Assembly: GCA_973895155.1 (NCBI GenBank)
Contig: OZ316891.1
Span: 6,481,708-6,545,707, forward strand
Source of the DNA: Marsupella aquatica
Lineage: Eukaryota > Plantae > Marchantiophyta
DNA length: 64,000 nt
Direction of reading: 5' to 3'
Part shown: piece by piece, positions 10,947-49,192 of the stretch
Position numbering within the stretch: the stretch's first letter is position 1
Layout of the letters: the number at the start of each line of letters is the position of its first letter
Notes under the pieces: generated by a model
Told to the model about the DNA's origin: nothing
Seen by the model: the letters and a program-made list of their open reading frames with translations, nothing else
Databases searched by the model: none
Translations under genes and position numbers: made by a program

Positions 10947-10948
10947 AG

Positions 10949-16660: not shown

Positions 16661-16856
16661 TGCAAGTAGAGTTATTTAGCAATGTGTGACTATTTGTATA
16701 TGGATTACTCATTCCTGTTTGGCTACGGCTTAGTTCTAGTTAACCCTTAGTTAACCCTTGTGGTTTTTAGGGGGAGACCTGGTTTGGTGATTGTCTAGAA
16801 CTTCCCGCTGAGGATTCCATATGGTAGCATTTAGTCTAGTCCCCAAGACAAGAGTC

Positions 16857-16865
16857 AAGGGGGAG
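16857..16865 (+). promoter_or_regulatory. Polypurine tract of the copia element
   Basis: AAGGGGGAG, 2 nt upstream of the 3' LTR. Confidence 0.85.
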
Positions 16866-16867
16866 TT

Positions 16868-20472: not shown

Positions 20473-20516
20473 CTGTTACTGGAGGAGGGCTAGCTATAGA
20501 AGGGCTATGGAAGGGC

Positions 20517-23073
20517 TGTCACGCGATTGACATGGGTCTTAACGCCAAAAACGTCACTATGGGTGCCAAAACCATCTCTTTATACCTGAGGATCACGAAG
20601 GGATGTTGTGAAGGCCGGTGAACACCAATTTACGCCCTTAACACCAGACTATCATAGCAAGACTCTATCACACATCACCCAAGCTCAATCCCAAGGAACC
20701 AAGGTTGGGGATCAGATCCGTGCTCATGATAGTTCTGGTGATAAGGGGTCTTCATATCGGGCCCGTACACACAGGGCCTAGCGCTACGGTGCGCATAGGT
20801 CTATACGTATGCTTACTATCATAGGTATGTTTCTATTCCGCCGCCGGAATGTACCCATAAACCAGTGACTCCTTACTGATTCCCGGCTTAGGGACTTCTA
20901 AGCCATTGCCCCACCACTCTGCCATTCCACTCTCAGCAATCAGAGCTATGACAGTCCTCACCCAGCCCACTTCAATGCACCATGTACACCTCTTAGTGGC
21001 GCTGCTAGTCCCATCATACACTCAGATTGCCTCACACACACACACATCCATGAGAGAAACGAGGCCTGAGAGGAAAACTCAATTAGATTCAACGATGTGC
21101 ACAATAGTCCACTGAGAACACTCGATCCGAACAATAGGCCCGAAGGCTGTCTACTCCAGATTACGACGTGCTTGCCCCGCAAGCCCCGTGCTTGCCATGC
21201 AAGCTCAATCCTGAACCTGAGCCCGGCTCACTCCAGATTGTGACGGCAGATTGGACTCAAACCAATCCCGTACTTGCCTTGCAAACTCAATCCTGAACTC
21301 AACCTCCTTCACTGCACTTCATTCTTGGGGGCACATATAGATCTCACACCTCCAATTCAGAATGTCAAGTTACGCATGCACAGTTGACTCGACTTCAAAG
21401 CTGGTACCAAGCCTAACGACAATCTATCCCAGACTGCAATGAGGCCCGGCCTCACGCTTGCCCTGCAAGCTCAGCTCTGGCCATAAATCCCTTAGTGCTC
21501 TCCACCAGACAAAGGCCGGGACTCCCCATGGATCACATAGCCTTGCCAGACTGAACTGTAAATGCTCCTCCTGCTGCCCCTCAATCAGTGTCTCAGCCTC
21601 CCTAATGTGCTCACCACAAATCAAATTGACATCCTCCCCACAGTTTACAATCACCAATACATCACCTATCACCAAGGCTCTGTATCGGGGGAAAAGAACC
21701 CAATTGTGCTGCCCACTAGAAAGAGCCACAATCCAGCTCGCAAACCTAGCAACCCGTTGCTGTGAAGCTTGGCTGATTACTCCCTGAGTAATAGCACAAC
21801 CAAGCTCTCCCCAACACGCAGCGTCCAAGTCCAGCCTTGCTTGCACAGAGCTCCTCCCTACTGCTCAGTCTAAGTGAGATCACACAACTGAAGTCCCCCC
21901 CTGCCTCTACCGGGGGCTGCTCTATATACTCTCATACTGAGCCCAAATAGGTGGATACTACGCTGCTGGAGCCCCATCCCAGCCCTAATAGAGCCGCCAC
22001 TATCTCTAACTACTGAACCCTAACTCACAACTTTATTTCTATCTCGAATTGGCTATGTACTTCGGATTCGGCCCTCCTCCATGGTTTTTGCGAGCTTGCG
22101 CCTCCTCTCCCGATTTCTCTATTCAACCATTTGCTGCGTGGATAGCAGCGTTGGAAGCGGCTTGAGCTCCTCTTTCCAATGAGGTCAATTATAGTCGATT
22201 TGGTCAAATACACAGAGAGTTATGCCCCCGCAACCGAGAGGGGGTACTCACTGCTGCGCTAACCCGAGTTACATAGCTAACCCGAGTTCGGCTAACCTAG
22301 CTATCCTATCTAACCCGAGTAGAGCTAACCCGTGGTCTCGGGTTAGGCCGCTACCCGCTATCCGCTATCCGCTAACCTAGCCTAAGCTGAGCCCGAACCC
22401 GAGTTTACCTGAGCTAAGCTGAGGCCGCGCTGACCTGAGCTAAGCTGAAGCCGTGCTGACCTGAGATAAGCTGAAGCCGTGCTTACCTGAGCTAAGCTGA
22501 AGCCGTGTTGACCTGAGCTAAGCTGAAGCCGTGCTTACCTGAGCTAAGCTGAAGCCGTGCTTACCTGAGCTAAGCTGAAGCCGTGCTGACCTGAGCTAAG
22601 CTGAAGCCGTGCTGACCTGAGCTAAGCTGAAGCCGTGCTTACCTGAGCTAAGCTGAAGCCGTGCTTACCTCAGCTAAGCTGAAGCCGTGCTCACATAAGC
22701 TAAGCCGTGGTCGAGCTTGGGTTAACCCGAAACTGAAGCCGAATCCGCTAATTCCGGCCACAAGTTAACCCGTCACACTAATCAAGCCGTATCTTTCTTA
22801 ATACACCTCCGTTTCTCGAGTGTTTTATATTGATTTTACTCGCCTTGACCAGATCTTTCCAATGCTCTTTACAGATCCAGATTTGGTGACATATTGAAAG
22901 AGATATGATCATCGACCACCCGCGACATAGCTTTTATTTCCCTACTCTTAACGCCATGATTGCCCTTATTCTTGCCATCTTGCTAATTGTTATGCAATAT
23001 CAATAGCTACTCCTTGCATACAGCAACCTACTTAATCAGATTACAAAATAAGGACCATGTCGTTGGCGTCACA
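20517..23073. mobile_element. 2.56-kb solo LTR (large, probably Gypsy-type)
   Basis: TGTCACGC...GCGTCACA termini and a perfect 5-bp TSD AGGGC. Absent from arm 2 (empty site ~48525-48535). No coding domains recognised. Confidence 0.85.
22408..22693 (+). repeat. Minisatellite, 11 x 26 bp, inside the solo LTR
   Basis: Unit CCTGAGCTAAGCTGAAGCCGTGCT(G/T)A repeated head-to-tail without spacers. Confidence 0.95.
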
Positions 23074-25830
23074 AGGGCGTAACCTAAGGAGGCTATTGGG
23101 GCTTTGATAGGAATAGAGGGTTAAGTTAGGTTAGGCTAGGGTTTTTGCTATTCAAGTTTGGGGTTCAAGCCAGGGAATTAAGGGGCAGCCAACCTGCCAC
23201 CCAATTGCAATGTTCAGTTTGAACACTTTTGAGTTTCATGCAGAGGTCAAAAGGAAGAGGTTGATGCCATAACAAGATGTGGAAGGACAATGTTGGCTAG
23301 GAGAACTGCCGTTGGACCTTGGAGTGCAATGTAGACTGAGGTCTTTGAGTAGACTCATTGTTTGTTTGTCATAGACATCTATTGCTATCCATTTTGCTAG
23401 CATTTGTTTACATGCCCATATTGTCTAACCCAAGGAAATGATTGTGTCTAACTGGTTGCATGAGAAGAGAAGGAAGACAATAAACCTAAGAAAGGAAGCT
23501 TGGTGAAGGAAAAGTGCAAAGTTTGAGTTTTCATGTCCGAGAGGTTTGTGTGTCTTGTAATGCCTTGTGTTTTTCAATGTTGTTTATAATTGCAAATACG
23601 AGTATTGCTAGTTGGTAACAGGAAAGTGGGTGGTAATTTGTTTGGATTTTTTTTTGGATTTTTTTTTTGAAATTTTTTTTTTGGTGAATTTTTTTTTTTT
23701 TGGGTTAGTTATCATCATATTGCTAGCGCCCGGAGCTAACAATAGCAGCGCTTGGCGCTTGCAAAAAAAATCATGATTTTAATTATTTTAAATAATAATA
23801 ATTTAAATGGTACATTTTTAGATCATCTTTTTTACAGGAGACTTTTTGCTAGTACCAGTACACCTGTTTGTTGTGGTGATGCCCAGGTGAATTAGCCATC
23901 ATAGTAGTATCAAAACCAAAATATACTATATATACAATGTTCCCATTAGGACTCTCACTTGGAACATTCACTTGAGACAAGATAACATTTCACTGAGTGT
24001 CGTAAAATCATGTTCATACCTTACTGGTGTTGTTGCTGTTGGTTAATAATTATGGACCTTTATTGAATTGGATCAACAAAATTGTGAAGACCCATCCTTG
24101 GATTGCTATCACAAAATATATACAAGGATAATACCCAATCCCGCTGCCTATCATTTTGCACCTAGCTGCTCACCATATTGCACCTAGCCACCCCAAGGGC
24201 AAGGCAACCCATGGTTAATGCTTTATTTATAAACGCCACACCATAGTTGGTTAGGATTTGTGCCTATCCACCCCCCACCCCCAACTAAAATGCTGCAGGA
24301 TGAAGGGAGATTGGTGGGTTAAGTTGTGCGCGCAGTAAGTTGAGGTTTCAGAGGTGAGGTTTTTACTACACACGGAGCTCAGGGGGGCATTATATGAAGG
24401 GTCCTACATGGTGTGCAATGTGTTTAGGTCCAAACCCATAAATTATAAGCAATTTTATTTTTTCCTGACCTTACTTACTTTAAAGCAGCCATTTTTTTAT
24501 TATGTTTACCCCTTAAAACTTTAAGTAAAGTTTTGTTTTGAATTAAACAATGCATATAAAGAAATGATAAGTATCTTGTAGGTTAGAGCCCAAATTTTTT
24601 GCAATCATTCAATTTGCTCCGTCTTTTCGCTTAATGCAATTTACTTTGCCTTTCCACTTGATACTACATCCTACATCTCTTGTACAGTCCATAGACTATG
24701 AAACTAAATAATTATATATATTATTCTATGGGTGTTCAATTAATTATCAATCAACTTACAAGTCTATTTTGCTCTCTAAACTCTCAAATATTGTAGCATG
24801 GTGGGTACCATGCACTACAAATAGGAAACCAAACACTATCGATTGTCTATTCAAGGTGTCGATTCTTTACCTTGCTTCACAACCCGTTGCATGACTACAT
24901 TATATCCACAGACTGGAGCAGAATTGAGCCAATGGCAATTTACAACTCATTTGTTTGAGCTCATGGCCTCAAATAAGAAGCAGAGGTGACCTTCACGATA
25001 GGTCACTTGAATGCAAAAGAAAGGTCCCCTTGACGCAAGTGGGGCATTGAACACACTGGGCTTAGCATAGGATTTTCATGGTTAATTCTATGATAATGAT
25101 AAAGTAAAAAAATACAAACTATATCCTAGACATTTTTCAAACCAACTAGCAATACTCGTATTTCACTAGTAGAAAACAAGGTTATTTATGACCGCAACAA
25201 TGATGACCCATATGGTCTTTTCAACAAAACAATGACGCATCCGTTTCTGTCTTTCCAGACGCGTCACAATGGACATTTAGGTCACGGTCCTTTTGGACAA
25301 ATGACGCAAAAAAGGTGTGGTCATTTCATACCGTCCAAAATGACTTAATTTATGATTTGGTCATAAATGGTAAACTGTCCGAAATGACCCAAAAATCACC
25401 GTTGACGGTCAATTGCCGTTCATTGTCGACGGTCTCCATACCCAATTATGTAATGCCACATGGCAGTTAAAGAACAAAGGTCATTTGTCATTTTGGACTT
25501 GTCCAAAATGATGCACATTATATAACAAATCAGGTAGTGACATGTGGCTCAAAGGATATTCCACCATGTGGCAATAGATTTGGGTCATTTTGGACTTGTC
25601 CAAAATGACTACATTATAGACAAGTCATATTGGGGCACGTGGTTCAATTAGAAAGAGACACATGGAGATATACATTAGTCATTAATGAATTGGGTTTAAT
25701 GACTTGAGTTGAGTCATATTGGACACAAACATAAACATCCATAATGACCATTAGATTAGTCATTTTAGATGTCATTTAGATCATGTATTTAATGACTCGA
25801 GTTAAATTGGTCATAAACAAGAAGCCTTAA

Positions 25831-29178: not shown

Positions 29179-30364
29179 TTAAGGCTCCATGTTCATATTG
29201 GACAAAAATTCATGTCATTCAATAGATTTGTTGAATGAAACCCTAAAGAGACATTCTATACCTAACAAATCTAATTGACATTCATACAAGATACATCCTT
29301 AAGTTCCGCAATAATTATTCAACTCAATGCAAATTTATGAAGCAAAATGACATTGAAAAAAAGCATACACGTAATATTATTAGATGTATAATTGTCAAGT
29401 GCTACAATTTGAAATATCAACAACTCTTAATATCTGTAGAAAAATAGAGTTGTCATTCTCATTCTACAAACCTATTTCTATCATGTCTATTGCTTCTTGG
29501 CTCATGGCTGCTTATACTACTGTTTGGCTGTTTCTATTGTTTCTTGAGCAATCTAAAGTTCCACAGGGCACTCATCCCCTTCACATCAGATAACTTAGAC
29601 TAGTTCTCCCCTGCATTAGCAAATGATAATGCCACATCTACAAACACTTCAATCACAATGTCAATACTGTTAATTGTGTCACACTACAACACTACCCACA
29701 CCTTTTGCGAACTTGAAAGCATCGCAAACAACAAAGGAAATCAAAAAACAAAACTTGCCTTTGCGAAGTATCGCGCATCGCAATAGAATCGCAAACTGCG
29801 AAGCCCAAAGGTTCGCATCCGGTCTTTCGCAAGACCTTCGCAACGCCTTCGCAACTTGCGACACTAATAGAATCGCAAAGGACTCACATTTAAGCGACTC
29901 CGTGGGCGTCGCGAGAGGCTTGCGATAATAATCAAGCAGTTAAATATTTGCAATCCCAAAAGTTTGGTAATCGGTTTGCGATATTAAGTTAATGGTAGTT
30001 ATGCCATGAACATGGCTTCACATTTATGTGAACGTATGTGGTTTGCATAATGTTTGCGATACCTTCAATATGGTAAATATGCGAATTGGGTTGTTCGCAT
30101 AGGTTTCGCAAGATGTCTTGAGGCTAGGGTTTAGATTTAGAGTTTTGAATTATGGTTGGGTTCTTGTCGTCCAACACGGAGAATGAGGTCTGAATCAAAA
30201 TTGCTTTATAGAAAATTGATAGGTACACAAAAATTAGGGTTTCCTAAACCCTAAACCCTAGATGGGTGTCATATGACAAGCTAGGTCCCTATAAGACTAC
30301 CCATATCAAAACTATATACTACACTAAGTAAATAGGCATCCCATAGGCACTACACCACCAAGCT

Positions 30365-32341
30365 CTAGAATGGGGTCCTCCTACTCCTTGTCGCCGGCCT
30401 CTTCCCCTTGTCCCTCTTGCGACGATCCGGACGTGGCACAGGAGGTGGTGCTGGCTGCTCCTCCACATCTGGTTCCTCCTCGTCCTCGTCCTCATCCTCT
30501 TCCTCCCCCTCCTGCTGGGAAACTCCTCCTACTGGTCCAGATCCACTACTCCCTCCTACCTTGGGCCCCTTTGTCGTGGTCCCCTCATTGTTCTCATCGG
30601 TGCTGCTGGTATCACTGGCATCCTCATCATCCTGTTTGCACAGCACAACGCCAAATTGGTTTAGGTTTACGGAATGAAAAGATAAGTGGATTGGGTGGGA
30701 AAAACTGAAGGGGATACATGCACTTACAGTCGCCAACTCTGCGTCAACCAAGTCAAAGAGATGTTTGGCTCCATGCGCAGCTCCTATCTCCATCTCTTTT
30801 GCTGTTATCTTCCTGCGGTACCTCTTATACTACCACAACCAAACATTCCAAAACCAAAATAGATCGAGGTTAATATGCTATAAACCCAAGAAAAATGCAT
30901 GGAGGTGCTAATAGGGTGCCCCCTAACACAAAACTGGGCTCAATAACCCTTAGCGGTTTTTTTAAAACATAATACACACTTGCGAAACTCCCCACTTCGC
31001 AAATTCAAATAAATTGGCTGTTTGCGAAGTAGTTTGCAAAGCGAGTTATTTCGCAATAGCTTCGCATTTACAACTTTAAAAAATGCCATGATAGACTTTG
31101 CGAAACATTTGCGAAGCAACCCGCATCGCAAAAACTTCGCAAACTCTGTTTTTAAAAAATTCCGAGAAATCTCTAAGGCACGCAATGTGTCAGGGTGACC
31201 TAAAGTACAAGACAGGCCGTAAGAAAGAAACAAGAGGTATGCAGGGGGGGCATTGCAGGTTTGGATAGCAATTGAAAGCAAGGAAACAGAAGCAGGGGAG
31301 GAGAGGAGAGGGCCCACTCACAAAGTGTGCTTTGAGGCCGGGAAGTCCACCTTGGCCCATCTTGTGCGTGGTCTTGGGCCGTTTGCTGACTCGCTCAGCT
31401 GCAAGGATGAATTTTTGGGGTGGTGCACCCACTTCATCCACAATGTGCTGCATGTGAGACACTTTCTCAGCCATTGCCTTGAGCTCTCGGTCGGACTTCC
31501 CGGCCTTCTGTGCCTTGGCTTCCATCTCCTTCCAGAAGAGAAGGTTCCTGGAAGCTCTCATCTGCACCTCCACTTTGTAAAAGGCATTCCACACGTCCTC
31601 AGTGAATTGCAGTGGCCTCCTCACGTTTCTGTACTCCTCCAAGTTTGCCAGGTAGGCCCTTACCTTCTTCCTATCATGGTACCGTGCTTGAGACATTGAA
31701 TTGGAAATTCTATCTGCAAGCCACTGTTCATCAATCTCTGCTCCATTTTGAAATGAATCTTTGATTTGACTCATTACTTTCTTCTGGTCTGCCTTGCTGA
31801 GTTTCCCCCACTCAACTCCTCGTGCAAAATTGGAGCGCACCATAAGCCTGATAGTGCTCTTTGCCCCGGTGTAGGCCAGTTCAGTAGGAATGCCTTTGAT
31901 CAAGGCAATCATAGGCAGCTTCTTCCTCTCTTCCTCCTTCTTTCGCTGCTCCTCCCGCTGTGCTCTTATCTCATCTCGTTCCTCTCTCCTCCTCTTCTTT
32001 TCTAGGGCAACAGGTGAGACTACTCCTGCCTTGGCCCTCTCCTCCTTCTTACGCTTCTTCTCTCTTGCCTTCTATTGAGCTGCACTCCTTTGCTCCTCCT
32101 CCCTTGCAATGTTCCCTACATCTACTCCCGTTTGCAAGGCTTGCCCAAGGATTGCACTCAAAGAAGCAATCCCTGCTGGTGTAGTCAAATCTAAGTGGCT
32201 CAACTGTGCTGCATTGAGGTGCTCAGCCATCAAATCGGTCCATCGATTCCTCTCCTGCTCCCCATTGCCTTCATTCCCATTGCCACTCTCACTCACCCCT
32301 GTCCTATCACCTCCATTTGCTCCACTGGAATCCATAGCCAA
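30365..32341 (-). pseudogene. CACTA ORF2 / TnpA-like (Ptta/En/Spm-type) protein. Exons ~32341-31322, 30829-30728, 30631-30365; one in-frame TAG at 32072-32074
   Basis: The pattern W-x-K-L...KK...I-x-x-x-F...W-L...P-L-Q-F-T-E-D-V-W-N-A-F...H-K-M-G-Q-G-G is typical of CACTA second ORFs. Phase-0 GT-AG introns; acidic then basic (NLS-like) C-terminus. ORFs 32072-32341 and 31190-31912 are in the same frame across the stop. Confidence 0.75.
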
Positions 32342-33610
32342 GCCACCCCCCGAGCGCGCGTGAGCTCCCTTCTCCCTCCCTACGCTTGAAATTTGTCAAA
32401 TGCCGCTGAGTACGCCGCGGCCGAGTGCAAAAGTACAAGCGGGAAAGACTTGCGAAGCAACCCGTTTCGCATATAGTTTCTCAATTTTGCAAAACCATTG
32501 CGACGTGAAAGGCTTCGCAACACCTTCGCTCTCTCGCAGAAATGCTCTCGGGCTCTGTTTTTCTGAAGGTCTTGCGAAAGCAATAGCTTCGCAAACTTCA
32601 ATTCTAATTTGTGATGGTATTTGCGAAGGAAGCGGCTTCGCAAGACATTGGCAACTCGTCCTGGGGGAATGTTGGTTTCATTTGAAAGGGTTTTTTTCAA
32701 AGGTGAAGTGGACCCCTCTATACTCATATTTGGAATGCTTTTTGGCCATGTTTTGGGTGTTAGATAATAGTTGAAGGCGGGTTTGAAGGGTTAGGCAGAT
32801 TTCAGGTTAATGGGTTATGTATGGTGTTGGTTTAGGCTAAGGTTTGGGTTTACATTAGTTTAGAAGAAATAATAAAGGTGTGGGATTTGGTTTACAAGAA
32901 ATAAGTAAGGTTTGGGTTTAGGGTTTTAGGGTTTGGGGTTTTTTAATAGAAAGGTCTCTAGGGTTGAAGAAAGGTTTGGGTTTGTGTGTAAGTCAGATTT
33001 AGGTTTAATAGGTAGGATGCGGTTTGGGGTTGAAGGTTTGGATAAGACAAAGCAAGGTTTCATGAGATTTATATTGCAACCTTTTGGGTTTAAGAGAGGT
33101 TCATTGGGTTTATGAATCAAAAGGGGATTGGCATGGGTTTTGCTAACAAAGGAGGGGAATATATGATAGCTTGCAAGGTGCGGCACTTTTTGATGATTTG
33201 ATACTATTGCATATGCATTGTGAGAGCCCGGGCATCTGAAAGGTAAACATTGCATGATCGGCTAAAGTGTTCCTTTCATGTACTTAACACTTTTGGTTGC
33301 CACTATGTATAAAGGGGACATGTATATAGGGTTTTTTGTTCTTGTCTGGTCTAGATTATTGTGCTTACATATACATGGAATGGTTGCAGCTTTTCCCTCA
33401 TACTTTCAGATTGGGTTCATTAATTATCTTAGAGCCACAAGAGATATTGGCACTGCTGAGCCCGGGTCTCATAAAGGTACCTTTTTTATTGCTATGGTCA
33501 TTTTGGTTTGGGTTTCTTGTCATCATTATTTGGGAACTTTGATTTATATCATTTTGTGGTATGTTTTGGTCATAACATGCCCATTTTAATTATATCTTGT
33601 TACAGGGGAT

Positions 33611-36600
33611 ATGTCTTCATCTTTTGAAATCTCCACCACAGACTCGTCCTCCTCTAATGAAGATACACCACCTCCACCTCAACATCACACGACCGCACCT
33701 CCTCCTCGCGGTCCACCCCGTCAACTTTGTGAATGTTCCAGATGTGTGGGTCAGGTTTCCCAAAAATCTTACATATGTGCCCAACATATTGAGAGATATG
33801 GGCGTTGTGGACGTCATACGGCAGGGGCTTCTTCATCTCATATGGTAAGTGTTATGCCTTAGTTTTCCTACCCTATTCCCATTACTCAATGGTTGAAGGT
33901 TTGCAATTTCACACCTACTTTTGTTTGTTTTGGTTTCGGTGGAATAGGTATCCAATAGGCCTAGACCTGCGGCACAAGCACCCTATGTCCCATCACAAGG
34001 TGTTCTAGATGCTATAGGCAATGCATTCTCAAAAGCCTTGGGTCTAGCGGCAAGGCCCACCAGTCCTAGGGAAGTTGGGGTTGAGGCTATTGTCCCAAGA
34101 GGGAGAAAGCGTTCCAAGAGGCGGGCCCGAGGGGATACTGATTTGTACAAGGCAGTGGTTACGGGTCGGTGGGGTGATTGTGAGTTCACTAGCAGATGTG
34201 TCCCTATCATCAAGGACTGGGATCCTGAGACTCTTGGTTTGCCACAACAGCTTTCCTACGGTGCGGAGGTAGAGGTTTGGGGTAGACGTTGGGTTATCAA
34301 ACCTTCCACACTTGGGGATAGACATGGCTATGGAGTTTTTGCCTGTGAGGACATCATTGTGGACGTCGAGAGTGGTAGAGGTGGACGCGGCCGAGAGGGG
34401 CCTACTTTGTTTCCTTATGGTGGACCCATCTACAAGAGAAGACATTGGAACATGATCCTTGCACAACACCCTGAGTGGAAGACTTATGCATTGGACATGG
34501 ATACTTTTGATGGTAACACTAGAAGGTATAGTGAGCAGCGTGTCATAGATGGGGACCCCATACGGACTGGGAATATTGCTAGTTTCATAAACAGTACCGT
34601 GGGGACTCGCCCTAAGCGTAGGCAAAATTGTGAGTGGGTTTTCATTGAGGTCCTCCGCCAGCACCTTATGGCCAGACATATCATCATGACCATTGCCTAG
34701 TTGTAGCAACAAGGACCATTAACTCAGGGGATGAGTTATTTACTCACTATGAGTGGGATTAGGGTTAAGTTAAGGGTCATAGGTGGTATGTTGCATATCA
34801 AAGGGCACTACATATGGCCTTTGGCCACATTTTGTATTTGCACCACAACCAATATTATTTCATTTTTGCACACCCCTAGCCCATTTTTGTGTGTGTTCTC
34901 TTTGCAATATAACTTTCAATTGTTTGCTTTGTTTTTAGAATGTGCGACCCTCTCCAAATATGTTACCACGGAGATTGAGAGCAACATATCGAGAAATGGG
35001 TATGCCAGAAGAAGGACATGGATCAGAGTCACACTCCTCATCAAGTGCTAGTGGAAGCAGTAACCCTGATGAAGAGGTACCTCGGACGGATGAACAAGTA
35101 ACTGATGACCAGGATAGAGCCATGGATGACTTTATGGTTGATTGGTTTGGTGCCAACAACCTTGGTGATGACCTTCCCAATGAAGGGCAGGTGCCCCCCA
35201 ATGATCCACGCCCAAGGCATACCCCTGAGGGACAACGCCAATGGGAAGAAGCAGAGGAACATGCCCGAACACCTATCTATGAGGGTGCTCGTTTGAGTCG
35301 TCTTTCAGCCATCTTGGGGTTGATGAACCTACAGGCCAAACACAATGCAAGCAATGCCTTGTTATCTGATATGTTTGCACTTTGCCATGACCTTATGTTG
35401 CCCACTGAGAATGTGTTGCCAGCAACTTGGAAGGAGGCAAAGAGTGTTCTCTCATCTATTGGCATGGAATATCATATTGTTCATGCATGTGTGAATGATT
35501 GCATGTTATTTCATGGGGCCAATGCAAACATGACACAATGTACAACATGTGATGAGCCTCGCTATGACCCCAACATGCTAACAAAGAAGGTGCCAAGGAA
35601 GGCTGTTCGTTGGTTTCCCATCATTCCTCGGTTGTTGCACATGTATCGGTGTTCTGACTTGGCAGAGTTGATGGTATGGCATAAGATTCATCGACCAGAG
35701 TCTGGTGTCATGCGGTTGCCAGTTGACTCCCCTGCTCACAAACATATTGAGGCAACATGGCCAGACTTTGCACATGATCCTCGCCATGTGAGGCTAGGAT
35801 TGGCATCTGATGGAGTTAGCCCTCATTCACTTGGAGGAAAGGGGCAACCTACATCAGTTTGGCCTGTGGTTGTCATGAATTATAACCTCCCACCATGGCT
35901 ATCCATGAAGAAGGGGTTCCTTTTATTGTCTTTGATTATCCCAGGTCCAAAAAAGGTGAAGAACTTTGACACTTACTTGGCACTATTGGTTGGAGAACTT
36001 CAAAAATTATGGAATGGAGTGTGGGCATATGATGGCAGGAAAATTACAGGAGGTTTTCCACGTGTCTTTCAATTGAGAGGGATCATTTGTTGGACAATGC
36101 ATGACTATCCTGGTAAGATGACTTCCATGCCATTTGCAACCCTTCAATAATGTGTAGTTCCTATTGATGTTTCTCATGTGACAACCCTAACATAAAGTTT
36201 GCATGGTTTGATTTCTTCTATGTAAGCAGGGTTTGGTTTTGTCTCTGGATTGCAAACTCAGGGGTACAAAGCTTGCTCTACTTGTGGCCCAAGCTTAGAG
36301 GACATGGCCACATATTGTTCATGGATTAGAAAGATTGTTTATATTGGGCATACAAAGTTTCTTCCCATGGGGCATGAGATGAGGTTTGACCCACTTCTAT
36401 TCTCCTCCTTTGACATGCCATTTGGTGATGAGCGTGAAATTCCTGACGCAACAAGTTTTGCACATTGGAAGTCACTAGCTAATAGGGTGGCAGACCCAAA
36501 TGATTCCTTCACCTTTGATAGGACAGGTTTGACCAGGTGGAGTATACTAGCCACTTTGCCCTATTGGTCTGAGTTGAAGATCCACCATCTTTTAGACCCC

Positions 36601-38429
36601 ATGCACATAGAGGGAAATGTGGGGAAGGCTTTGATAAAGCATTTTTATGGGGAGAAGGACACTAATTTTAGGGAGGCATGCGAGGAGATGGAAATGCATC
36701 CAGATGTTTGGGTGACAATTGATCCTATCACAGGTGTGGAGAATCGTCCTTCTGCTCCTTGGGTGTTGAGTGTTGGCCAAAGACGTGAATTTCGGAACCG
36801 TATAGGAGAGATGCGGTTTCCTACAGGCTATGGTGCCAACCTTCGAAAAGCTTTTGGGATGGAGGACAATCACAAGTGGCCACGATATCTGAAGACACAT
36901 GACTATCATCGCCTATTGCAGCATATATTGCCAGTGGCAATTATAGGTATAGGGAGTGAAGAAGTGCAAGATGCCATCTGGTCATTGGGTCGTTTGTTGA
37001 GATGGATATGCTCAAAGGAGATATATGTAGAAGAGATCCCTGGGATGGAGGTATTGGCAGTTGAGGTGGTATGCAAGTTGGAGAAAGCCCTTCCTCCTTC
37101 CTTCTTTGATTGTCAGGTTCATTTACTTGTGCATCTTGTGCGGGAGGTTGCCATTGCAGGTCCAGTGCATTGTAGATGGATGTATTGGCTTGAGCGTTAC
37201 ATGGCGATGTTGAAGGCTTATGTACGTAACCGTGCACGGGTGGAGGGAAGCATAGCTACAGGATACTTGGCAGCATAGAGTATGTTTTATTGTAGTAACA
37301 TCTTGGCCACCATTGATCCTACTTGTCCACGTACTTGGATGGAGGAAAGAGAAGAGGAGGAGGACCGTTTAACAGGTGCCACAAAAACAAGCATGTTGAC
37401 ATCAACAGAGTGGTCACAGTTGACAACATTTATGTTGAGTAATAGTAATATCATGGAGAAATGGAGAGAGTTTTATGAGAATGCCAAGAGAACAAGTCAA
37501 AGAGCAAGAATTTTTCCTAAGATGCATGAGTATATGAAGCAAAAGTTGCTTGAGTTGGATGACATGGTGACACAAGGAGGAGATGTGTCCCACTTTCCTA
37601 CCATCACAGATGACGTTCGGACCATTGTTCATGGCCCTTTGAGAGTGGTGACATCCAAGACGGCTATGTGGACACAAGGGAGACACTTCAGGTCCACTAG
37701 TACCTAACCTTTCTTCCTCTATTAATTCATGTAGACCTTATTTTGATTAGTTATTTCTATTGTTTAAAAACTTTCTATTATTATTAATGACATCTATAAC
37801 TGTAATGTTGGCTTCTATATTTATGCCATAGGCCATGTGGGTTTTGGCTATTTAGGGATGGGTGTCATATTTTGATGATTATTACATTAATGGTATCTTT
37901 TACAGTGTAATAAAAATTTGTGGGTTTTGTTAATTTTAGGGTTTCTTCCCTTGATGAGAAGAGGGGTCGTACTTTTGATTGTGGAGTTCAAGGGGAATTT
38001 TCTCAAGACTCCAGAAGCAGCCGCCATGACAGGAACATTGTTCGAGATGTTGTGCCACACTATGGGAAGATAGAGGAGATCTTGGTGGTATCATATGACA
38101 ACCATTCAAAGTTTGAGGAATATGTCTTCAAGTGCAAGTGGTTCAAAGTGAACCTTGTTGGTCAAAATTGCACTGTACTTCAAGATGAGAGTGGGTTTAC
38201 ACGGTTGAAGACAAGTGCCACTAGTGTTCAAGCATCTCATTGGCAAACGTCAGAACCATTTGCTTTCCCATCACACTTGGAGCAATGTTTCTACATTCCA
38301 TACCCCTTAGACATCGAGTGGTCAATTGTCATCACCTATGTGCCACGTTCTCGTTCCATTGTTTCTGAGAAGCCAGATGTTATTGTATCAGACCTAGATG
38401 ACCTTGAGGCCGATGAGGACCAAGTGTGA
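33611..38429 (+). pseudogene. CACTA TnpD-like transposase. Exons 33611-33844, 34939-36112, 36230-37691, 37940-38429; one nonsense codon at 37276-37278
   Basis: Exon 1 CECSRC...ICAQHIERYG resembles the transposase-associated Cys/His domain. Transposase_21 motifs HACVNDCMLF, RLGLASDG, YNLPPWL and DYPG..SG...GYKAC; DPMHIEGNV; DUF4218-like FFDCQVHLLVHL/GPVHCRWMY/RVEGSI; DUF4216-like HYGKIEEI/FKCKWF. Splice phases are consistent. Confidence 0.93.
33948..34762 (+). CDS. SET-domain (protein lysine methyltransferase-like) alternative terminal exon within transposase intron 1; one frameshift near 34649
   Basis: The four SET motifs occur in order: IKPS..GYGVFACEDI, PYGG, YAL...VIDG..GNIASFINS..NC, and, after a -1 shift, LVVATRTINSGDELFTHYEWD*. 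The acceptor AATAG|GTA at 33947/33948 is phase 0 with the exon 1 donor ATG|GTAAGT at 33844. Confidence 0.82.
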
Positions 38430-39981
38430 GGGACATATTTATATGCACTTGGGTCCAGCCTAGACATTTGTTCATGTTTGGTGATATAAAAAAAAGGATT
38501 TTCTATATTTATATTTGCCATTCACTTTTGAATGAATCATACTCATGACATATGTATTGTATTGTTTTATTGTGATCACTTGTGAATTTTACATGCAACT
38601 TTCTATCTAACCTCTGTTGCTCAATATAACTTTATTTCCTACTTATTCCATAATTTTCATTCTCACCCTCGTGTTTCCCTCCTCCGTGGTACGTCTGTCC
38701 CTCCTCCTCCCTTCCTCTTTCTCCTCCCTCCTTCCTCTTCCATTGTACTCCCTCCCTTTTCCATCCTTCATTGTACCTCCCTCCATCCTCCCTTCCTCTT
38801 CCCTCCTGCCCCATCCATATATTGGACCATCCACCCTTTTCATTGTCTCACCTCACAATAACCTTAATTTTTAGTTTGCGAACAATTTGCAAAGCTCACA
38901 AACTCTCACCGGACTCGCAATTTATATGAAGCTTCTCGTTTCTCAATATTTCCATACTACACTCTTCGCAAACTTGTGAAGCAAAATAAATCACAAATTT
39001 CATATTTTCAGCGTTTCGCAAATCTTCCATCCTCCGACATTCTTAAACTTGTCAAACAACTACTATCGCAAAACATTTTCAATCCAATATTCTTCGCAAA
39101 TATTTACATGAGTTAGTTTCGGAGTCGGCGAGCAATTTTTCCGTCTTCGGAAGGTGCCTTTCCATTCGACGCATTTCGGTAAAAATTGCAAAACCACTTA
39201 CTTCGCAATTTATTAGCGATATAATGCGCTTCAGCTATTATATTTGCGATAGGGATAGAATCGCAAATTGCGATGCGGGTTGATTCGCAAAATATGCAAA
39301 GCGCCGCCCATCGGAAATACAAGAGCGTCGACAAAAATACCTTTGCAAAAGTGTCAAATATGTTGTAGTGTTAGTTGGTCTTCCGTGCAACACACGAGGC
39401 TCCCCTAAAGATGCTCTCATAAAACACACAAGGAAAATGCATAAACAAACTATAATCACCAACAAGATATAATCACACTAGAAACATGAACGAACATTAT
39501 AAACATACAATGACATATATACACCACAATAATTACATTAAATAGACAGTGAATACATGATAGAGAATTTTACCTTCATTATCACTAGAAACAATAAGAG
39601 ATCATTTTCTACTATCGAGCTTGGAACTTGTGCGATACTAGAGTGATGTGCCATCCATGTAGTCATCATGCTTGCCAACTCCTTCACAATGGCTTTCAAT
39701 TCATCGACATCCAATTGCACAGCCCCAATGGTAGTGATCTCTTCTTTTGAATGTGGGGTCTCTAAATGACTCACAAACCAACTCAACATTCTCACTGTCA
39801 AACTAACAAACTTGAATGTGGGGTCTGTAAATGACTCACAAACCAACACAACATTCTCACTGTCAAACTAACCAACAACTCAACATTCTGTCAAATAGAA
39901 AATGATGTACAAATTAGATTGGAATGACAATACTCACAGCTGATCCATGTCTGTACCTCGCACCAATCCATGTCTGTACCT

Positions 39982-42213
39982 CGCACCATAGATGCTGTCG
40001 CCAGTCTTCTTCCCGTCACTACTTTTGCTCGTGGATAGACTTGATGTCTCGATCAAAAAACTCTTGAGTCTCTACAATGCCTCCTCTTCACCTCCTACCA
40101 GTAGAGCCCCTCCGTATGGAGTACTTTTCTCCTGCTTAGCAAGAATGTGAAAACTCAATGCCAGGCATTCAAATCAAGTTGAATTCTCTCTAAATGGGAA
40201 GTCAATGATAACGCTAAATCGCCCCTAGGAAAGGGCCACTCTTATGAGTTGAGTCTAACATTTTTCCCTTTCTCCCTCAGATATATCTGTGAGAGAGGTT
40301 GTGGGGTGAAGAGACAATCCGACTTCACTCGCTTCACACCTTACTTAAACCAAATACTCCAGCTTAGCCAAGTACAAATCTAAAATCAACTCCCAACAGG
40401 AAGTGGCAAAGAAAGATCACAAAAGCCACCCTTTCCGGTGTTGAAAACAAGGTTAAGAGGTGAAAAATGCATCTGGAGCAGAAAACGCAGAACTCCTCAG
40501 GGGATATAGAGAACAATACTAACCTGAAGACCATTAAGAGTCTGCAGTCTACACATACATTAGGTTCTCACCAAATTCAATAGACACAAATCTAACAAAA
40601 AGAAGACTACAGTCGGCACGTGATTATGTTTGGTGCAAAATTGTCTTACTACGAGAGATAGGAATAATTTTCCTCACAAGTCCTTTTAAGGTTTAAGTGC
40701 GCTGTAAAATATAATGTCACGCATGATCCTCCCCTTCATGAAGGAAACAACATAGAGACCTAGAACTGCAATATTGTATACAGAAAAGTCTCCATATTTG
40801 CAGCTATGCATTGATTGAATGTGAGTGGTACGCGTTTCAATTACCTATGGCGATCAGTAACTTACAGAAGTTGGAACTTGTTTGAAACTTAAGAAAACAC
40901 AAAAGAACTAGTACTTGGGGGAAGAAGGGATAGGCACCTCCACCATCCCCATTGCATTCCCCATCCTGTTATATTCGTAATACTAATACAGATTCTTGAT
41001 TGGGTTGGTCTATATCTTTATTCAAATTCACCTTGCCCACAGCAACCCAAGGGTTTGAAAGTTAACATAGGTTTTACCATGCCCAAGATCCTGAGAGAAG
41101 CACAGATAACACGACAAAACTCCAATCACATGACTCGAAAAATATGCTCTTGCTTACTAACGGGTGAGGGCTTCACGTTCAAACACAAACAGATCCTCAG
41201 CTAAAAAATGAAACATAATTCGATGAGATTGGTGAGTAGATGATGCCATTGTCTCTTAAACAAATGAGACAATATAACTTACTGGTCGCTTGGCAGAAGT
41301 TGGATTCAATCCTAGGTCTTGAAGGGATGGAATATCTCCAGCCTTGATGCTGCCACGATTAGGAAACCCTTTCAGCTGCTTGGCAGCAGGTATAGTAGCT
41401 CTCACTTCCAATTGCTGTACTTTCTCTCTGAAGCCACCATAGTTGGAAGGCATTTCGTCCAGCTTGAACGGAAGGTCATCAATGTGGAACAAGGTACTTC
41501 CCCAAAAGAATTTTGGGTCCACTCCTTTCTCCTTCAGTGCAGCAGTGACCTTCGTGATCTCGGCAACCATCTCCTCGATAGCCACTTCTCGGTGAGCGTA
41601 AAGGGCATCGGCTCCAACACTCTTTGCTAGCGTGACTAACACCTCCTCGGGCTTCCCAATTCTCACGATCAGCTCCGAGCCTCTTTGCCTCAAATTCTCT
41701 CACAATTTGGCCACAAATTCCAAAAGAAACTTAGCTCTGTATGGGCCGGTTTTGTCGAATCCCGATGACGATTTTCCATAGTCACGAGGATCAAAGCAGT
41801 AGATGGGGAGAATTGACACAGATTCATTGCTGGCATTGACCAGAGCCTCATTGTTGTGGACACGCAGATCGTTCCTAAACTAGACAATAGTAGCCCTTTG
41901 CAGGCCAGCGGGGTTCTTGGGTTCCCCCAAAATTGCGATCCCTGAGCCTTTGGTACTCTGGAAATGGGGAGATGAAGCTCGCAAGCTTGCTGCCATTGTG
42001 CACACTCTGAAGGGGGGCAGTGGCAGCCACCAGCACCTTGGCGGAGCCCACAACAGGGCTGGGATTCAGAGCGCTCCTGGAAGACGTGTCCGCTGGCTTG
42101 GCAAACCCCACCTTCTTGGCTTTCGATGATGATTGACCACCAACAGCCAGGTTGACAAGATGAGTCAATGGAGGGACAACAACATTGAGAGAAAGCACGG
42201 AGTCCATGGCCAA
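39982..42213 (-). pseudogene. PHR2: Captured fragment of photolyase/blue-light receptor PHR2: exon 1 (42213-41283), intron, and partial exon 2 (40131-~39982)
   Basis: ATIV*FRNDLRVHNNE, LPIYCFDPRDYGKSSSGFDKTGPYRA, GADALYAHREV, FWGSTLFHIDDLPF and MPSNYGGF; exon 2 reads VGGEEEAL*RLKSF...SIYGA. Contains stops and a frameshift and is truncated. Confidence 0.9.
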
Positions 42214-44399
42214 GCTCAGAGACGCTGCCCCGGGACAGGATTGGGTGCCAGGCCATACACAAGAACCTCCGTCCGACCATCATGACGATCACCACCATCT
42301 TCTGCCAATTCTGCTCGTCCACCAGAAGGATCCGAAGACCGAAAATTCCTCACTGGCATTTTTTGTGGCTGACTTCCAAAAATGGCAAGAGATGGCGCAT
42401 CACCAACGATTCCTGCTATCCAGGTTCGTATCCAATATGAGCTTGAGATCTTGGAAGTCTGCCATCTCCCTCTCTAGCCCGTGCCTACTGCCCTGCACGC
42501 TGTGAACATGAGTATGGTGTGTGTTGTTGTGAACGTGTTCTTCTGTCAATATGTGGAATAGTAGGACAGGAAAAGTGTAATGTGGGTAGGGTTTACCCTA
42601 AATGAAAGTTACGTAACACATGTGCACTAACAGACAATGGGAACATTCAATCTGACTGGATCCTTTAAGACAACACATATATTGCAGGCACATGTAAAGC
42701 TCCACGAACATTGAGACAGGGTCGGAAAGCGGGTCCAGGTTGTGATTAAGAGAAAGAAACAGAGAGAAACCCCAGCTCCAGCCATCGCTTGAGCACACAT
42801 TTGCTTACCCTTAAAGCCCGAACTTGCTCCCACAAATGTAAGTCCTTAGTTCCTCCCACCACCGTTTGACAATGGCTGTTGCACTGCAAAGACAGTGCAA
42901 CGAAGCTCCCCTTCCAACAATGGACAGCTACCGCAGCTCCTCAGCTCCCACAGCTCCTCCGCTATGGAACCTCTTGTAGCTGCTTGCCGATCGCAGCTCA
43001 TCCTCACCCGCTCCTCACCACTCCTCTCACTCCTCAATCTCCAGTAGCTTGTCGCCGACTACAGGTCGTCACGGATTGCCTTGAACCCTTGAACTCCCGC
43101 AGCTCCTCCCTGACGGCAGCTCAATGATCACAATCTTAGCTGCACAACCCAAGCCTTGAGCACGCCTCACACCTCATCTGACCAAGCTACGAAGGCACAA
43201 CGTAGCCAGGATCGATGGCCATGTAAACCGTGTGAGGAGGCCGTCGACGCTACGCAACCCTCACCAATGTGCTAAGCACCCTAAAGCAGAGAGCACTCAG
43301 TAATGTGGTGTGCCAAGAAAGCCAAACATTGAACGTCAAGTCTCGACGGAAGCACGGAGGGAGGGAGCAGGCGCAGGCGTAGGCGCAAGTAGAAGGAACG
43401 GACAGCGGACGTGCTTATGATGATAAGCTAGGCACTCAGGACCACCCTCAACATTGTCGTCGCGGTTGCGCTCCACATTGCCCTTCAGCACGATGTTTCT
43501 CGAAAGGAATGGAATGACCTAAGCACTCAGGACTGCCCTCCGTTGCGCTCTACATTGGCCTGCTGCACGACGTTTCTTGGTAGAAATGAATGCAACCACA
43601 CCAAGATCAAATAATTATGTGTCCTACCTGTAAGTGCTTTGTTACAAAGTAAAATTGACTGCGGGAATCCTCTCGTTTACATGCGATAGTCCTCCCACAA
43701 TGCAGGGCGTCATCTCAGCCGTCGGCATTTGTGTAGGTGTCATCAACACTGTTAATATAAAAATAATGTTAATGATATAAGAGGTCCTTTTAGACCAAGG
43801 GGAAACCTTGAATTGGTAGTTTTCTAAAGCTCTAGTTATGGCTCAAGAACACATTGACCCTAAATCCATAACTCGCCCCTCATTTAAACAAATTAATCCT
43901 TCATGGCAGGTGGAGGTGTTGCTGATGACACTAGTGTAACTATGTAACACCATTTTTTTGGGTGATAGATTATGTCTGAAAAATATATATCATTCCAAAT
44001 GTTAGCATTTCATAGCTCTCCACTGGGTGACTCAAATAATAGAAAACCCTCATTGACAATCGACTCAAACACATTTCTAGGGCAACTATTAGTTTTGTAG
44101 TAATGAGTATATTATGTGTACTCTAAACCCTCTACTCCTGGGTTGTGTGGTAAATATCCAGCTCCACGGATGGGTCATTTGTATAGGTATTGAATGACAT
44201 CACGACAGACAATTCTAATGACTACATCCAACATGATAGCCCTAATGACCTTATTTCCTGTCATTGGCATTTATGCAACATCATTAATTGCAAATACTCC
44301 AATAAAGGACCTTAGGGTACCTCCAAAGAACCCACCAAATTCCAAAACCAATAGTCCTCCAAAGTATTCAATAAACCAAGCCCCTCTAGCTCCTAGCCC

Positions 44400-47270
44400 C
44401 AAGTGTCATTTGTGTAGGTCCTGAATGAAATTGTAAGGAGTTACCTCTCTTATGACTCCGTATGTCGTCATTTGGTCTACATGACCCTACATATGACAAC
44501 CCCAATGATTGGCCTAAATGACTGCATAGGGGACCCCTTAAATGACCCAAAGTCCAGTCATTTGACTTATATGACATTCCATATGACCAATTTTCAGACC
44601 CTAATTGTAGTCATTGGTATTTATGACACAAATTGGTTTGGAAATGACCCAATGAAGGGCCTAGTACCTCCAAAGAGAGCGTGTTCCGTATTCCTTGAAA
44701 AACTGGAATATTCCTATATCTTTATACTAAAGAGGGAAGCACATGGACCATAGAAGGAAGCACCACAACCAGGCCCATTCCATTCGAGTTGCACTACGTC
44801 TTGGAGAAACAAACCAAATGGCTCCATTTGCCTTTGGAACATAAGATATCCATCCATGATGACGATCTTGGAAAATCGTTCCAAAGCCATACGACTTGGG
44901 AGTGATTTCCCCAAAGTTCCATCATGCCTTACTAGTGGAGGGTAAGCACAAAAACATACCTTAACATTAATTATGGCATAACTAGTGGTGGAGAATAGTA
45001 AGTAGAGTGTCCAGCGCCTAGTGGAGGGGTTGCAAGCATTATGTGGGCCACATGGCACTCTAGGGCCCGCGTTTAGCCCCTAGCCCCAAATTGGTTATTT
45101 GTGCTTCCCCTAAATGACTACCCAAGGGACCCCTCAAATGACCACAATTCCAGTCATTTGACTTAAATGACATCGAATGTGACCATTTTAATGACCCTAC
45201 GTGTAGTCCATGGTATTTATGACATAGTTTTGTTTAGAAATGACCCAATGAAGCCCTAGTACCTCCAAACAGACCCCATTGTAGATTCTTTGCAAAAATG
45301 GAATATTCCTATACCTTTAACCAGCACACATACCGTAGAGGGAAGCATCACTACCATGCCCATTCCATTGGTGTTGCACTACCTCTTGGAGGAACAAACC
45401 AAATGGATCCATTTGCCTTTGGAATATAAGATATTCATCCATGATGGTGGTGTTGGCAAATCACTCCAAAGCCGTATGACTTGGGAGTGATTTCCCCAAG
45501 GTTGTATCATCCCTTAAGTAATTGCAAAAACATGGCTTCAAAGTGCTCATGGCGCAACTAGTGGTTGGAGAATAGTAAGTATAGTGTCTCACACCTAGTG
45601 GAAAGGTTGCCAGTTCCATATAGGGCCCCATGACACTCTAGGGCCCACTTCCAGCCCTTAGCCCCAAACTCCCCAAACTGGTCATTTATGCTTGTCCATA
45701 ATGACACCATGAGGGATCTCCCTAATGACAACATCTTTAGTCATTTGGTCCAAATGACCTCTAAAATGACAACCAAATTGACCCTTATTGCAGTCATTGG
45801 CATTAATGACACACCATTTCGTGAAAATGACCCAATGAAGATTACACTACCTCTCGGAGTGCCCCTCACAATTCCTTTGCAATTTAATAGAACATTCCTC
45901 ATCTAAACATCGGGTCAAACATGACATAGTTTTATAGAAGGACGATAGTTTATCGGGCAAACATGACTAGTAAATTGCACTATATAAATATCTTGGAGAG
46001 ACAAAAACAATTGGTGTTTGCCTTTGGATAGGATGGTATGCATGCATGGTGACACTTTTGGCAAATGACTCCAAAGTTGTATGACTTGGGAGTGATTTTC
46101 CCAAAGTTCTATCATGCCTAAAGTAAATGCAAAAACACGGCTCCAAAGTGCTAATGGTGCAACTAGTGGTTGGAGAATAGTAAATATAGTATTTGGCACC
46201 TAGTGGAGGGGTTGCAAGCTCTATGTGGGGCCACATGGCACTCTAGGGCCCACCTTCAGCCCCTAGCCCCAAACTGGCCATTTGTGCTTCTGTTTAATGA
46301 CTGCACAAGGGACCCATCAATTGACCACAAATCCAGTCACTTGACTTATATGACTTCTCATATGACAGTTTTAATGACTCTACTTTTAGTCATTGGCATT
46401 TATGACGGGCCATTGCTCACATATGACCCAATAAAGGACCTAGTACCTCCACAAAGAGCCCACTTTAGATTCCTTGCAAGGTTAGAATATTCCTCTACCC
46501 TAAACCAGCACACACACCATATAGGGAAGCACAACAACCACGCCCTTACCCTAAACCCTGCTGCACTACCTCTTGGAGAACAAAAATAGCACTTTTGTTT
46601 TCATTTGGATGTGATGGTATGCGCCCATTTGACATTTTTGACAAATCACTCCAAAGTCGTATGATTTAGGAGTGATTTCCCCTAGGGTGCATCATGCCTT
46701 AAGTAAACGCAAAAACATGTGTCCAAAGTGTTTATGTCGCAACTAGTGGTTGGACAATGATGAGATAGTGTCCCGCACCTAGTGGAGGGGTTCTTAGCTC
46801 TATGTGGGGCCCCATGGCACCCTAGGGCCCACCTCCAGCCCCTAGCCCCAAACTGGTCATTTGTGCTTCTGCTTAATGACTGCACAAGGGACCCCTCAAA
46901 TGACCACAAATCCAGTCATTTGACTTATGTGACAGCCCATATGACAGATTTAATGACCCTACTTGTAGTCATTGGTATTTATGACACCAATTTTTTTAGA
47001 AATGACTCAATGAAGATTACACTACCTCCTTGAGTGCCCCGTCACTATTCCCCATCCAAACACCGGCACAAACATGACACAATTACATGGAAGGACGACA
47101 GCCTTGCACTACTTCTTGCAGAGACAAAAAATGGCTTCATTTCCTTTTAGATAGGATGGTATGACACCATGAGGGATGTCTTGAATGACAACTTATATAG
47201 TCATTTGGTCAAAATGACCTCTAATATGACCACTGACATTACCCTTATTGTAGTCATTGGCATTCTTCAA
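44400..47270 (+). repeat. Degenerate tandem array of ~580-605-bp units (~4-5 copies) in the right arm of the outer CACTA
   Basis: Marker AGTGATTT(C/T)CC at ~44901, 45486, 46091 and 46671; marker CCTAGTGGA at ~45017, 45594, 46199 and 46778. Confidence 0.85.
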
Positions 47271-47610: not shown

Positions 47611-49192
47611 TTAACACCGTTGGTTAAAATGACGGAAATACATATTTGTCATTTATCACCGTTGTCCAAAATGACCCAAATAGATTTTTGGTCATTTCAA
47701 TCATTGTCCAAAGTGACTATAATGGTGCTAAACATTGATTTATCATTGTTGTTATTTATTGGGTCATTTAGGACATATGTCTAAATTGACCATTTTAGGA
47801 AAATTATGTCATTTTGGTCGCATCAGTCATTACAGACATTATATAAAATGACACAAAAGTTATCATTTTGTCATTTCAGTCTATTGGTCATTGTGGATAG
47901 TCATTCTCCCGTCATTCTTTTTGTGTCATTAGAAATTTTGGTCATTGACTCAATTCCGTCATTGGATGATTGGTCATAAAGGGCCCTGTTTTCTTCTAGT
48001 GTTTGCAATTATAAATAACATTGAAAATAACTCAAAAGGCATTACAAGACACACAAACCTCTCGGACATGAAAACTCAAACTTTGCACTTTTCCTTCACC
48101 AAGCTTCCTTTCTTAGTTTTATTGTCTTCCTTCTCTTCTCATGCAACCAGTTAGACACAATCATTTCCTTGGGTTGGACAATATGGGCATGTAAACAAAT
48201 GCTAGCAAAATGGATAGCAGTAGATGTCTATGACAAACAAACAATGAGTCTACTCAAAGACCTCTAGATTGCACTCCAAGGTCCAATGGCAGTTCTCCTA
48301 GGCAGCCAACATTGTCCTTCCGCATCTTGTTATGGCATCAACCTCTGCCTTTTGACCTCTGCATGAAACTCAAAAGTGTTCAAACTGAACATTGGAATTG
48401 GGTGGTAGGTTGGCTGCCCCTTAATTCCCTGGCTTGAACCCCAAACCTGAATAGCAAAAACCCTAGCAGGCCTAACCTAACTTAACCCTCTATTCCTATC
48501 AAAGCCCCAATAGCCTCCTTAGGTTACACCCTTCCATAGCCCTTCTATAGCTAGCCCTCCTCCAGTAACAGCAGCAACAATTGAGGCTCCATGAAATTGG
48601 TTTGCCACTAAATATAAAGGCCCAAACCCTACATCCATGCATGCTTTTAGCTATTCTCTTGGGAAAAGTTAAATTAACTATTCTTTGGGATATACACGTG
48701 TACCAATTACACAGTGACAGGCTACCAATTAGAACATGACACATGTCCAATTCATGTGCATAACACAAAAACCCTTTTCTTTGACAACTTCATGGAATAT
48801 GACCCATTTAATATGGGCCACCCAAAAATTGAACCAAGTAGTTGGGGTACATCAAGTTTTGTGGGTTCAGACCCGTGGACCAATTAGAACTCCCCCAGTG
48901 CTGCCCATTTTTGCTTAAAACCTAAAATACAATGATAATGGAGATGAGTATTCTCTGTCACTCTTGTTTCCCACCGGTACCCTGAATTGGGAAATTTAGG
49001 TAGGCTCACCACGCAATGTAGAGGCTGCCAAATTTTCTAAGAGTGGTGGTCACCTGTACTTTTAGGCTGCCAAAGACTCCCCTCAAAGATATTGAGGGTG
49101 CAAACATGGCCCACAAGCCATTCCTAGTTCTGCTAGATCATAAACTAAGGACAGCAGTAGTGTCAACCATGCTAATGTGACTGGACATAAAT

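Follow-up and report, generated by a model that had tools for sequence, protein, structure and literature searches.

A CACTA transposon of mosses and liverworts with a predicted SET exon nested in its transposase gene

A 64,000-nt stretch of contig OZ316891.1 from the liverwort Marsupella aquatica (positions 6,481,708 to 6,545,707, here called the window) carries a CACTA/EnSpm transposon in whose transposase gene an exon with a predicted SET fold lies between a short zinc exon and the transposase body. One phase-0 donor at the end of the zinc exon faces two phase-0 acceptors, and we regard it as nearly certain that this layout is conserved and selected. As splice sites and reading frames are conserved and the domains have homologues, both junctions are likely used, and a single gene would give rise to either the transposase or a SET product. 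The distal acceptor would rebuild an ordinary CACTA transposase with an N-terminal zinc domain, and the proximal one would yield a protein consisting of zinc finger and SET domain. That this moss-and-liverwort lineage chooses in this way between transposase and a SET protein that binds S-adenosylmethionine (SAM) and methylates the element's chromatin in order to keep the element active is a proposal to which we give even chances.

A re-reading of the sequence confirmed the coordinates of the original prediction as well as the phase-0 donor and the two phase-0 acceptors, at 33948 and 34939, that had been claimed there. The zinc exon (33606–33844, plus strand, ATG at 33611) has a coding stretch of 234 nt or 78 codons (33611–33844) ending in phase 0 with ATG|GTAAGT, and an AG stands directly 5' of 33948 and of 34939, in phase 0 at both. 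Scored with splice-site weights, its donor is the highest-scoring one of the region in the window and in four scanned loci of the collection described below. Because an acceptor AG at 33604–33605 precedes it, which is also found in five of six loci inspected, the zinc exon is probably the first coding exon with untranslated exons upstream, so that its designation as exon 1 holds for the coding part only. Two similar blocks at 33222–33250 and 33458–33485, each with a donor-like end, are possible duplicated untranslated exons. The SET exon (33948–34762, plus strand) comprises a linker, an N-terminal hairpin and the SET domain (about 34290–34759) and ends with TAG at 34760–34762. That it is terminal, as had been stated, is not borne out: no canonical poly(A) signal exists in the window between this stop and the transposase acceptor. 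The latter opens the Transposase_21 exon (34939–36112, plus strand; PF02992, E 7e-39), and this match together with the CACTA terminal repeats bears out that the gene is the transposase of a CACTA element.

The conservation of this layout was followed in a metagenome scan of 39 loci, which were found by SET patterns and thus test for SET within CACTA elements and not for SET retention in every copy. As all loci but one (38 of 39) seem to belong to a single Sphagnum-type family, the counts are not independent and the independent comparisons are the window, locus L001 and that family. The transposase follows 3' of SET in 23 of the 26 loci that continue for 300 nt or more beyond SET, and in the three exceptions (L025, L034 and L035) SET is truncated by unrelated sequence. 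Upstream, the zinc exon is present 5' of SET in 17 of 18 loci with at least 500 nt of sequence, and L031 is a whole element of 9.9 kb with ACA/ACA flanks and the gene order of the window. The splice sites are kept likewise, with GT at the zinc-exon donor (16/16) and AG at the SET acceptor (22/24) and the transposase acceptor (22/23), the SET acceptor being in phase 0 in all 24 loci. At the transposase acceptor AG|AAT is common to the window, the Sphagnum-type loci and L001 despite differing intron sequences, and the codons from there to the first Met encode a conserved N-V/I-R-P-S in which silent changes occur, the pattern that translation arriving from an upstream exon would leave. The surroundings of the four ordinary CACTA transposases L040–L043, three of which are on short contigs, contained no SET match. 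The plant-type CACTA transposases L040–L044 lie within five bacterial genome assemblies, probably as contamination.

The SET fold of the nested exon is predicted from sequence profiles and a structural model. The frame opened at 33948 contains GYGVFA, PYGG and GNIASFINS..NC, three of the four SET motifs claimed for it and the third as a variant with NS for NH in motif III, and the fourth, GDELFTHY, lies together with the TAG in another frame behind a one-base frameshift near 34649–34650, as located by alignment with intact homologues. Two pieces of the window sequence match adjoining parts of the Pfam SET profile (positions 36–80, E 0.21, and 82–104, E 0.0089). Neither of them reaches the cut-off of PF00856, which the intact homologue P0003, sharing 74% identity with the window, exceeds (29.3 vs 22.4 bits). 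Homologue searches gave 49, 3 and 129 hits, in total 175 distinct ones, of which 77 of the longer ones were aligned (alignment A2); among these 77, 59 match PF00856 with E values of 0.1 or lower and none matches PF01555 (N6-adenine methylase). Searches of the PDB by sequence gave no match with the 250-residue piece of the window or with alignment A1, and the deeper A2 profile matches SET proteins there with a best E of 2.5e-7. The fold model is that of P0003 and not of the broken window copy; a first fold based on A1, with a predicted local distance difference test (pLDDT) value of 51, was not usable. With pLDDT 93.5 the P0003 model finds SET structures in Foldseek (best E 1.8e-7) and matches a solved SET domain with Z 12.1 and a root-mean-square deviation of 2.6 over 124 aligned positions, so that the SET identity has gained support from profile and structure alike. 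Rank 2 of an Atlas search with P0003 is a SET cluster mostly from Basidiomycota (feature score 0.96), which may hint at where the family came from. Two distant Calypogeia members of the SET family, P0113 and P0186, have a different cysteine-rich N-terminal part and possibly represent another element or a domesticated gene.

The motifs GxG and YxG, the Asn of motif III and the Tyr of motif IV have established roles in SET domains, and in the 77 homologues of A2 they are largely kept. This applies to GxG (G66 in 70/75, G68 in 73/76) and N148 of motif III (64/74), which bind SAM in SET domains, and to motif IV (E196 in 64/66, Y201 in 59/63), and Y90 of YxG, with Y201 the second active-site tyrosine, is Tyr in 59 and Phe in 18 of the 77. 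The fold and the core residues speak for the use of SAM, and the SET product probably binds SAM. As the lid that a post-SET region would form over the cofactor and substrate site is missing, we lean only moderately towards an active methyltransferase, with several features weighing against it. The motif III His is replaced by Ser in 70 of 74 homologues, the window protein ends three residues past the motif IV tyrosine and the post-SET region is absent: among the 51 rows with a matched motif IV (26 of the 77 A2 rows were left out of this count) the tail after motif IV has at most 5 residues in 27 and at most 10 in 39, and none of the 51 has a CxC or cysteine cluster in it. According to the available text of a study on H3K9 enzymes, which also gives the motif IV Tyr as a SET active-site residue, post-SET folding is required there, along with the motif III His, for a competent active site (PMC2797608). 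In the present family a homodimer might stand in for the post-SET region.

The same features would be explained if the SET isoform were a pseudo-enzyme, which is made and binds SAM or a histone tail, shielding the element from host methyltransferases, and which writes no mark. Post-SET closure as a requirement for catalysis (PMC2797608) speaks for this as well, but even homologues of about 25–30% identity retain GxG, Asn and both tyrosine positions, which a pure binder would not have to. Moreover LegAS4, the best match by sequence and in Foldseek, is also without the motif III His in the alignment. LegAS4 is an active enzyme, which again counts against a pseudo-enzyme, and we consider this explanation unlikely.

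As an enzyme, the SET product would bind SAM and methylate lysines on the element's chromatin, favouring expression of the element. That its target is indeed the element's own chromatin we put at a little below even chances. The best fold matches are tied (Z 12.1–11.1) over Set1, PRC2, SET7/9, SET8 and LegAS4 at 16–28% identity, and therefore no substrate can be read from them; that no histone-mark subfamily (Set1, E(z), Su(var)3-9, SET8 or ATXR5) stands out among them has to be set against a histone target. It would equally suit an active SET whose substrate is the transposase, the accessory protein or a host silencing factor, the splice choice then tuning transposition post-translationally. 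Such a role would go along with the domain shared with the transposase and with fold matches that include SET7/9, SETD6 and BurB, three enzymes with non-histone substrates. However, positive evidence for a non-histone substrate was not found and the top fold matches are mostly histone enzymes, which is partly library bias, and we see a rather small chance for it.

The CxCxxC-x13-H-x4-G motif of the zinc exon (33728–33802) has a single occurrence among the six frames of the window and is spaced like PF13963 of three ordinary CACTA transposases; for one pair of profiles HHalign gives 80.6% (E 1.3e-5). One homologue matches PF13963 weakly (E 0.031), the window zinc exon itself has no Pfam match and an Atlas search with it gave only scores below 0.8. 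The resemblance to the N-terminal PF13963 domain of ordinary CACTA transposases is thus suggestive. The SET frame of the window opens right after an in-frame stop and has its first Met at codon 169. Because the zinc motif resembles the CACTA N-terminal domain and the SET exon of the window family lacks its own start codon, the shared zinc exon is probably required for either product. In public gene models from Sphagnum and Calypogeia (P0018, P0020, P0031, P0050 and P0051) the zinc exon is joined to SET, and in the Riccia models P0096, P0122 and P0128 SET pieces precede a CACTA transposase.

Three points weaken the case for both junctions: the public gene models are themselves predictions, a direct join of zinc exon to transposase is seen in none of 13 zinc-exon proteins, a small candidate set that makes this a weak objection, and many relatives have an early Met in the SET exon. 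The last point, a Met at SET-exon codon 4–6 in the Sphagnum-type family and in L001, would allow SET to be a nested gene whose expression, through an internal promoter or untranslated exons and from its own Met, bypasses the zinc exon and leaves it to the transposase. This is improbable, as the window and Calypogeia P0050 have no early Met, the SET acceptor is in phase 0 in each of the 24 loci, and even the distant homologues P0056, P0061, P0072 and P0093 carry the zinc motif before SET. A fusion of SET to the transposase by way of a donor located within the SET exon, as drawn in models P0052, P0096, P0122 and P0128, was also considered as the main form and rejected, as the join points differ among the four and no above-threshold internal donor is common to the window and the four scanned loci.

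Purifying selection on the SET core is seen in comparisons between families and not among close copies. The original prediction had named SET retention with a ratio of non-synonymous to synonymous substitution rates (dN/dS) below 1 as a check, which came out as expected between families (0.23–0.28; window against L001, L002 and L013: 0.275, 0.247 and 0.232, with bootstrap upper bounds of 0.43, 0.38 and 0.36) and gave no purifying signal among close copies. Several observations weigh here against our proposal. The transposase (0.09 and 0.14; zinc exon 0.17–0.21) is under stronger constraint than SET in the between-family comparisons, and among close Sphagnum-type copies the median ratio of non-synonymous to synonymous polymorphism (pN/pS) is 0.95 for SET vs 0.49–0.68 for the transposase exons, or 1.35 vs 0.79, 1.15 and 0.53 if shared variants are taken. 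Furthermore an open frame is found in only 6 of 17 full SET exons. For private variants the ratio is close to neutral in SET and transposase alike, and post-insertion decay accounts for most of the neutral pattern among close copies; a recent relaxation on SET in the Sphagnum-type family is possible. A SET exon carried passively as a captured host fragment would produce this neutral pattern, but it is largely refuted by the between-family dN/dS well below 1 and the conserved active-site residues, while the identical position in moss and liverwort elements at 38–77% identity and the failure to identify a close host SET gene among the 175 hits also count against it, leaving it hardly any probability.

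The whole element spans 29682–39370 (plus strand, 9689 bp) and has 10-bp terminal inverted repeats starting with CACTA. The first ten bases of the left repeat (29682–29691, plus strand) are identical in L004, L009, L031 and L038 and the right repeat (39361–39370, minus strand) is a perfect 10-bp match to the left one. With its CACTA...TAGTG ends, a flanking 3-bp target-site duplication (TCA/TTA with one mismatch; ACA/ACA in L031) and a Transposase_21 domain accompanied by DUF4218 and DUF4216, it belongs to CACTA/EnSpm. The first two catalytic Asp motifs presumably lie in the exon at 34939–36112, where we placed them using the consensus. It is followed on the plus strand by an exon at 36230–37691 with CxxC, HxxxxxH and DUF4218 (PF13960), and by the last transposase exon at 37940–38429 with DUF4216 (PF13952, E 9e-8) and splice sites. 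No relatives of the transposase were found in the viral collection. The window copy is dead because of the SET frameshift, a premature transposase stop at 37276–37278 and an in-frame stop at 32072–32074 in a divergent gene on the minus strand, and no second copy exists within the 64-kb window.

This divergent gene (30368–32335, minus strand) has at least two exons, and its product has no Pfam or PDB match. It is conserved 5' of the zinc exon at 11 of the 39 loci, and its dN is 0.29 vs dS 0.97. On its position alone it is a candidate for a DNA-binding accessory protein with a TnpA-like role. All 25 TTCGCAA copies of the window are inside the element, which makes up 15% of the window, although this enrichment is descriptive only as the motif was chosen from the element itself. 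They form four clusters, two of which are subterminal (left, 29705–30111; right, 38876–39290), one located in an intron of the minus-strand gene (30980–31142) and one in the presumed divergent promoter region (32450–32643). For the two internal clusters matching ones exist in L004, L009, L031 and L038, and related TCGCAA clusters are found at matching places of these four loci in general, the right end being covered only in L031. The divergent gene product may bind these clusters in the manner of TnpA and VANC at their own motifs, and either this product on the TCGCAA clusters at ends, promoter and intron or the shared zinc finger might recruit SET to the family copies. The internal clusters in intron and promoter region resemble motif arrays of anti-silencing systems. 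In its widest form the proposal describes an old land-plant CACTA clade which may have moved between peat mosses and liverworts and which switches by splicing between its transposase and a minimal SET without post-SET; guided by the zinc finger or the divergent product, this SET would give family copies a histone mark that is activating or anti-silencing. In this form the proposal is doubtful.

SETMAR is a fixed host gene in which SET is fused to a mariner transposase, and its SET domain is row 42 among our fold matches. It shares with the gene described here the presence of SET and transposase sequence in one gene, whereas here both would be alternative products of a mobile element. SET genes are also carried by HarbingerS and by Phytophthora MuDR families (PMC12730594), which are likewise DNA transposons with an acquired SET gene but, as far as the available text describes them, belong to other superfamilies and other hosts. 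A case from the superfamily of our element is PAG2 from red-algal Plavaka elements (EnSpm/CACTA), a gene of N6-adenine methylase and SET (PF00856) for which chromatin modulation has been proposed (bioRxiv 10.1101/2025.02.11.637652). Compared by its description in the available text, PAG2 is a separate gene with SET fused to the methylase, whereas here SET is an exon within the transposase gene and PF01555 is missing. The novelty is thus more limited than originally suggested: SET on EnSpm/CACTA as such is already in print, and the nested shared-exon form in land plants was not found in a literature coverage that excluded Repbase and most subscription papers; supplements of two preprints (curated elements and 962 Spm proteins) may list such elements. 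The available texts of PMC4158355, PMC12973397 and PMC11982613 contain no SET-carrying plant CACTA. What sets this lineage apart among SET-carrying transposons is a nested exon together with a shared zinc finger, the absence of post-SET and its land-plant hosts.

Production of two proteins by alternative splicing is described for maize En/Spm and Arabidopsis EN/SPM3 and 7, which make TnpA and TnpD from one gene (PMC13547354; bioRxiv 10.64898/2026.08.24.746577). CACTA ends, the 3-bp duplication and subterminal motif arrays are common to En/Spm and our element, as probably are a transposase plus accessory product from one transcription unit. In the accessible parts of these reports, however, the En/Spm accessory is a helix-turn-helix DNA-binding protein of flowering plants only, whereas here it would be a SET protein, encoded upstream of the transposase body and sharing the zinc finger. 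The plant anti-silencing factors VANC of VANDAL elements and TnpA of Spm bind DNA motifs and cause hypomethylation (bioRxiv 10.64898/2026.08.24.746577). An accessory factor together with clusters of short motifs in non-coding parts of the element is found in these systems as well as here, but the portion of that preprint available to us mentions no methyltransferase domain for VANC or TnpA, and the accessory exon described here has a predicted enzyme fold. If our proposal is true, a transposon's own lysine methyltransferase, made as splice alternative to its transposase, would be a direct enzymatic counter-measure which ties chromatin priming to transposition. With about 200 residues and no post-SET the small SET domain should also be easy to express and would be a test case for a minimal SET active site.

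Named homologues come from Sphagnum, Calypogeia and Riccia, and the closest named relative of the window SET is Calypogeia P0050 with 82% identity. The Riccia models, at 38–45% SET identity, have either the zinc motif upstream of SET or SET fragments ahead of a CACTA transposase. The SET of the liverwort Calypogeia is 77% identical to that of the moss Sphagnum and 38–45% to that of the liverwort Riccia (P0050, P0051, P0056, P0064 and P0072). This closeness may reflect horizontal transfer between co-occurring bryophytes or old lineages that were not sampled. The SET family is abundant, with one protein cluster of 360 members, and the public label "SET domain-containing proteins" for family members can inflate host SET gene counts in Sphagnum and liverworts.

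The surroundings of the element in the window include an exon with a DNA_photolyase domain (PF00875, E 3.7e-16) at 41259–41699 on the minus strand, a host gene adjoining the element. A large inverted duplication of 93–99% identity (6513–23569 vs 48033–55573) contains a gene with the P-loop GGPGLGKS and a repeat-like C-terminal part, which is NB-ARC-like by eye and whose left copy is interrupted near 10.5–17.3 kb. Frames for a Copia-like reverse transcriptase and RNase H, likewise assigned by eye, are located at 14678–16660 on the plus strand and are bounded by direct repeats of 96% identity (10596–10895 and 16862–17161). Finally, two tandem arrays with periods of 26 nt and about 590 nt occupy 22343–22758 and 44224–47264.

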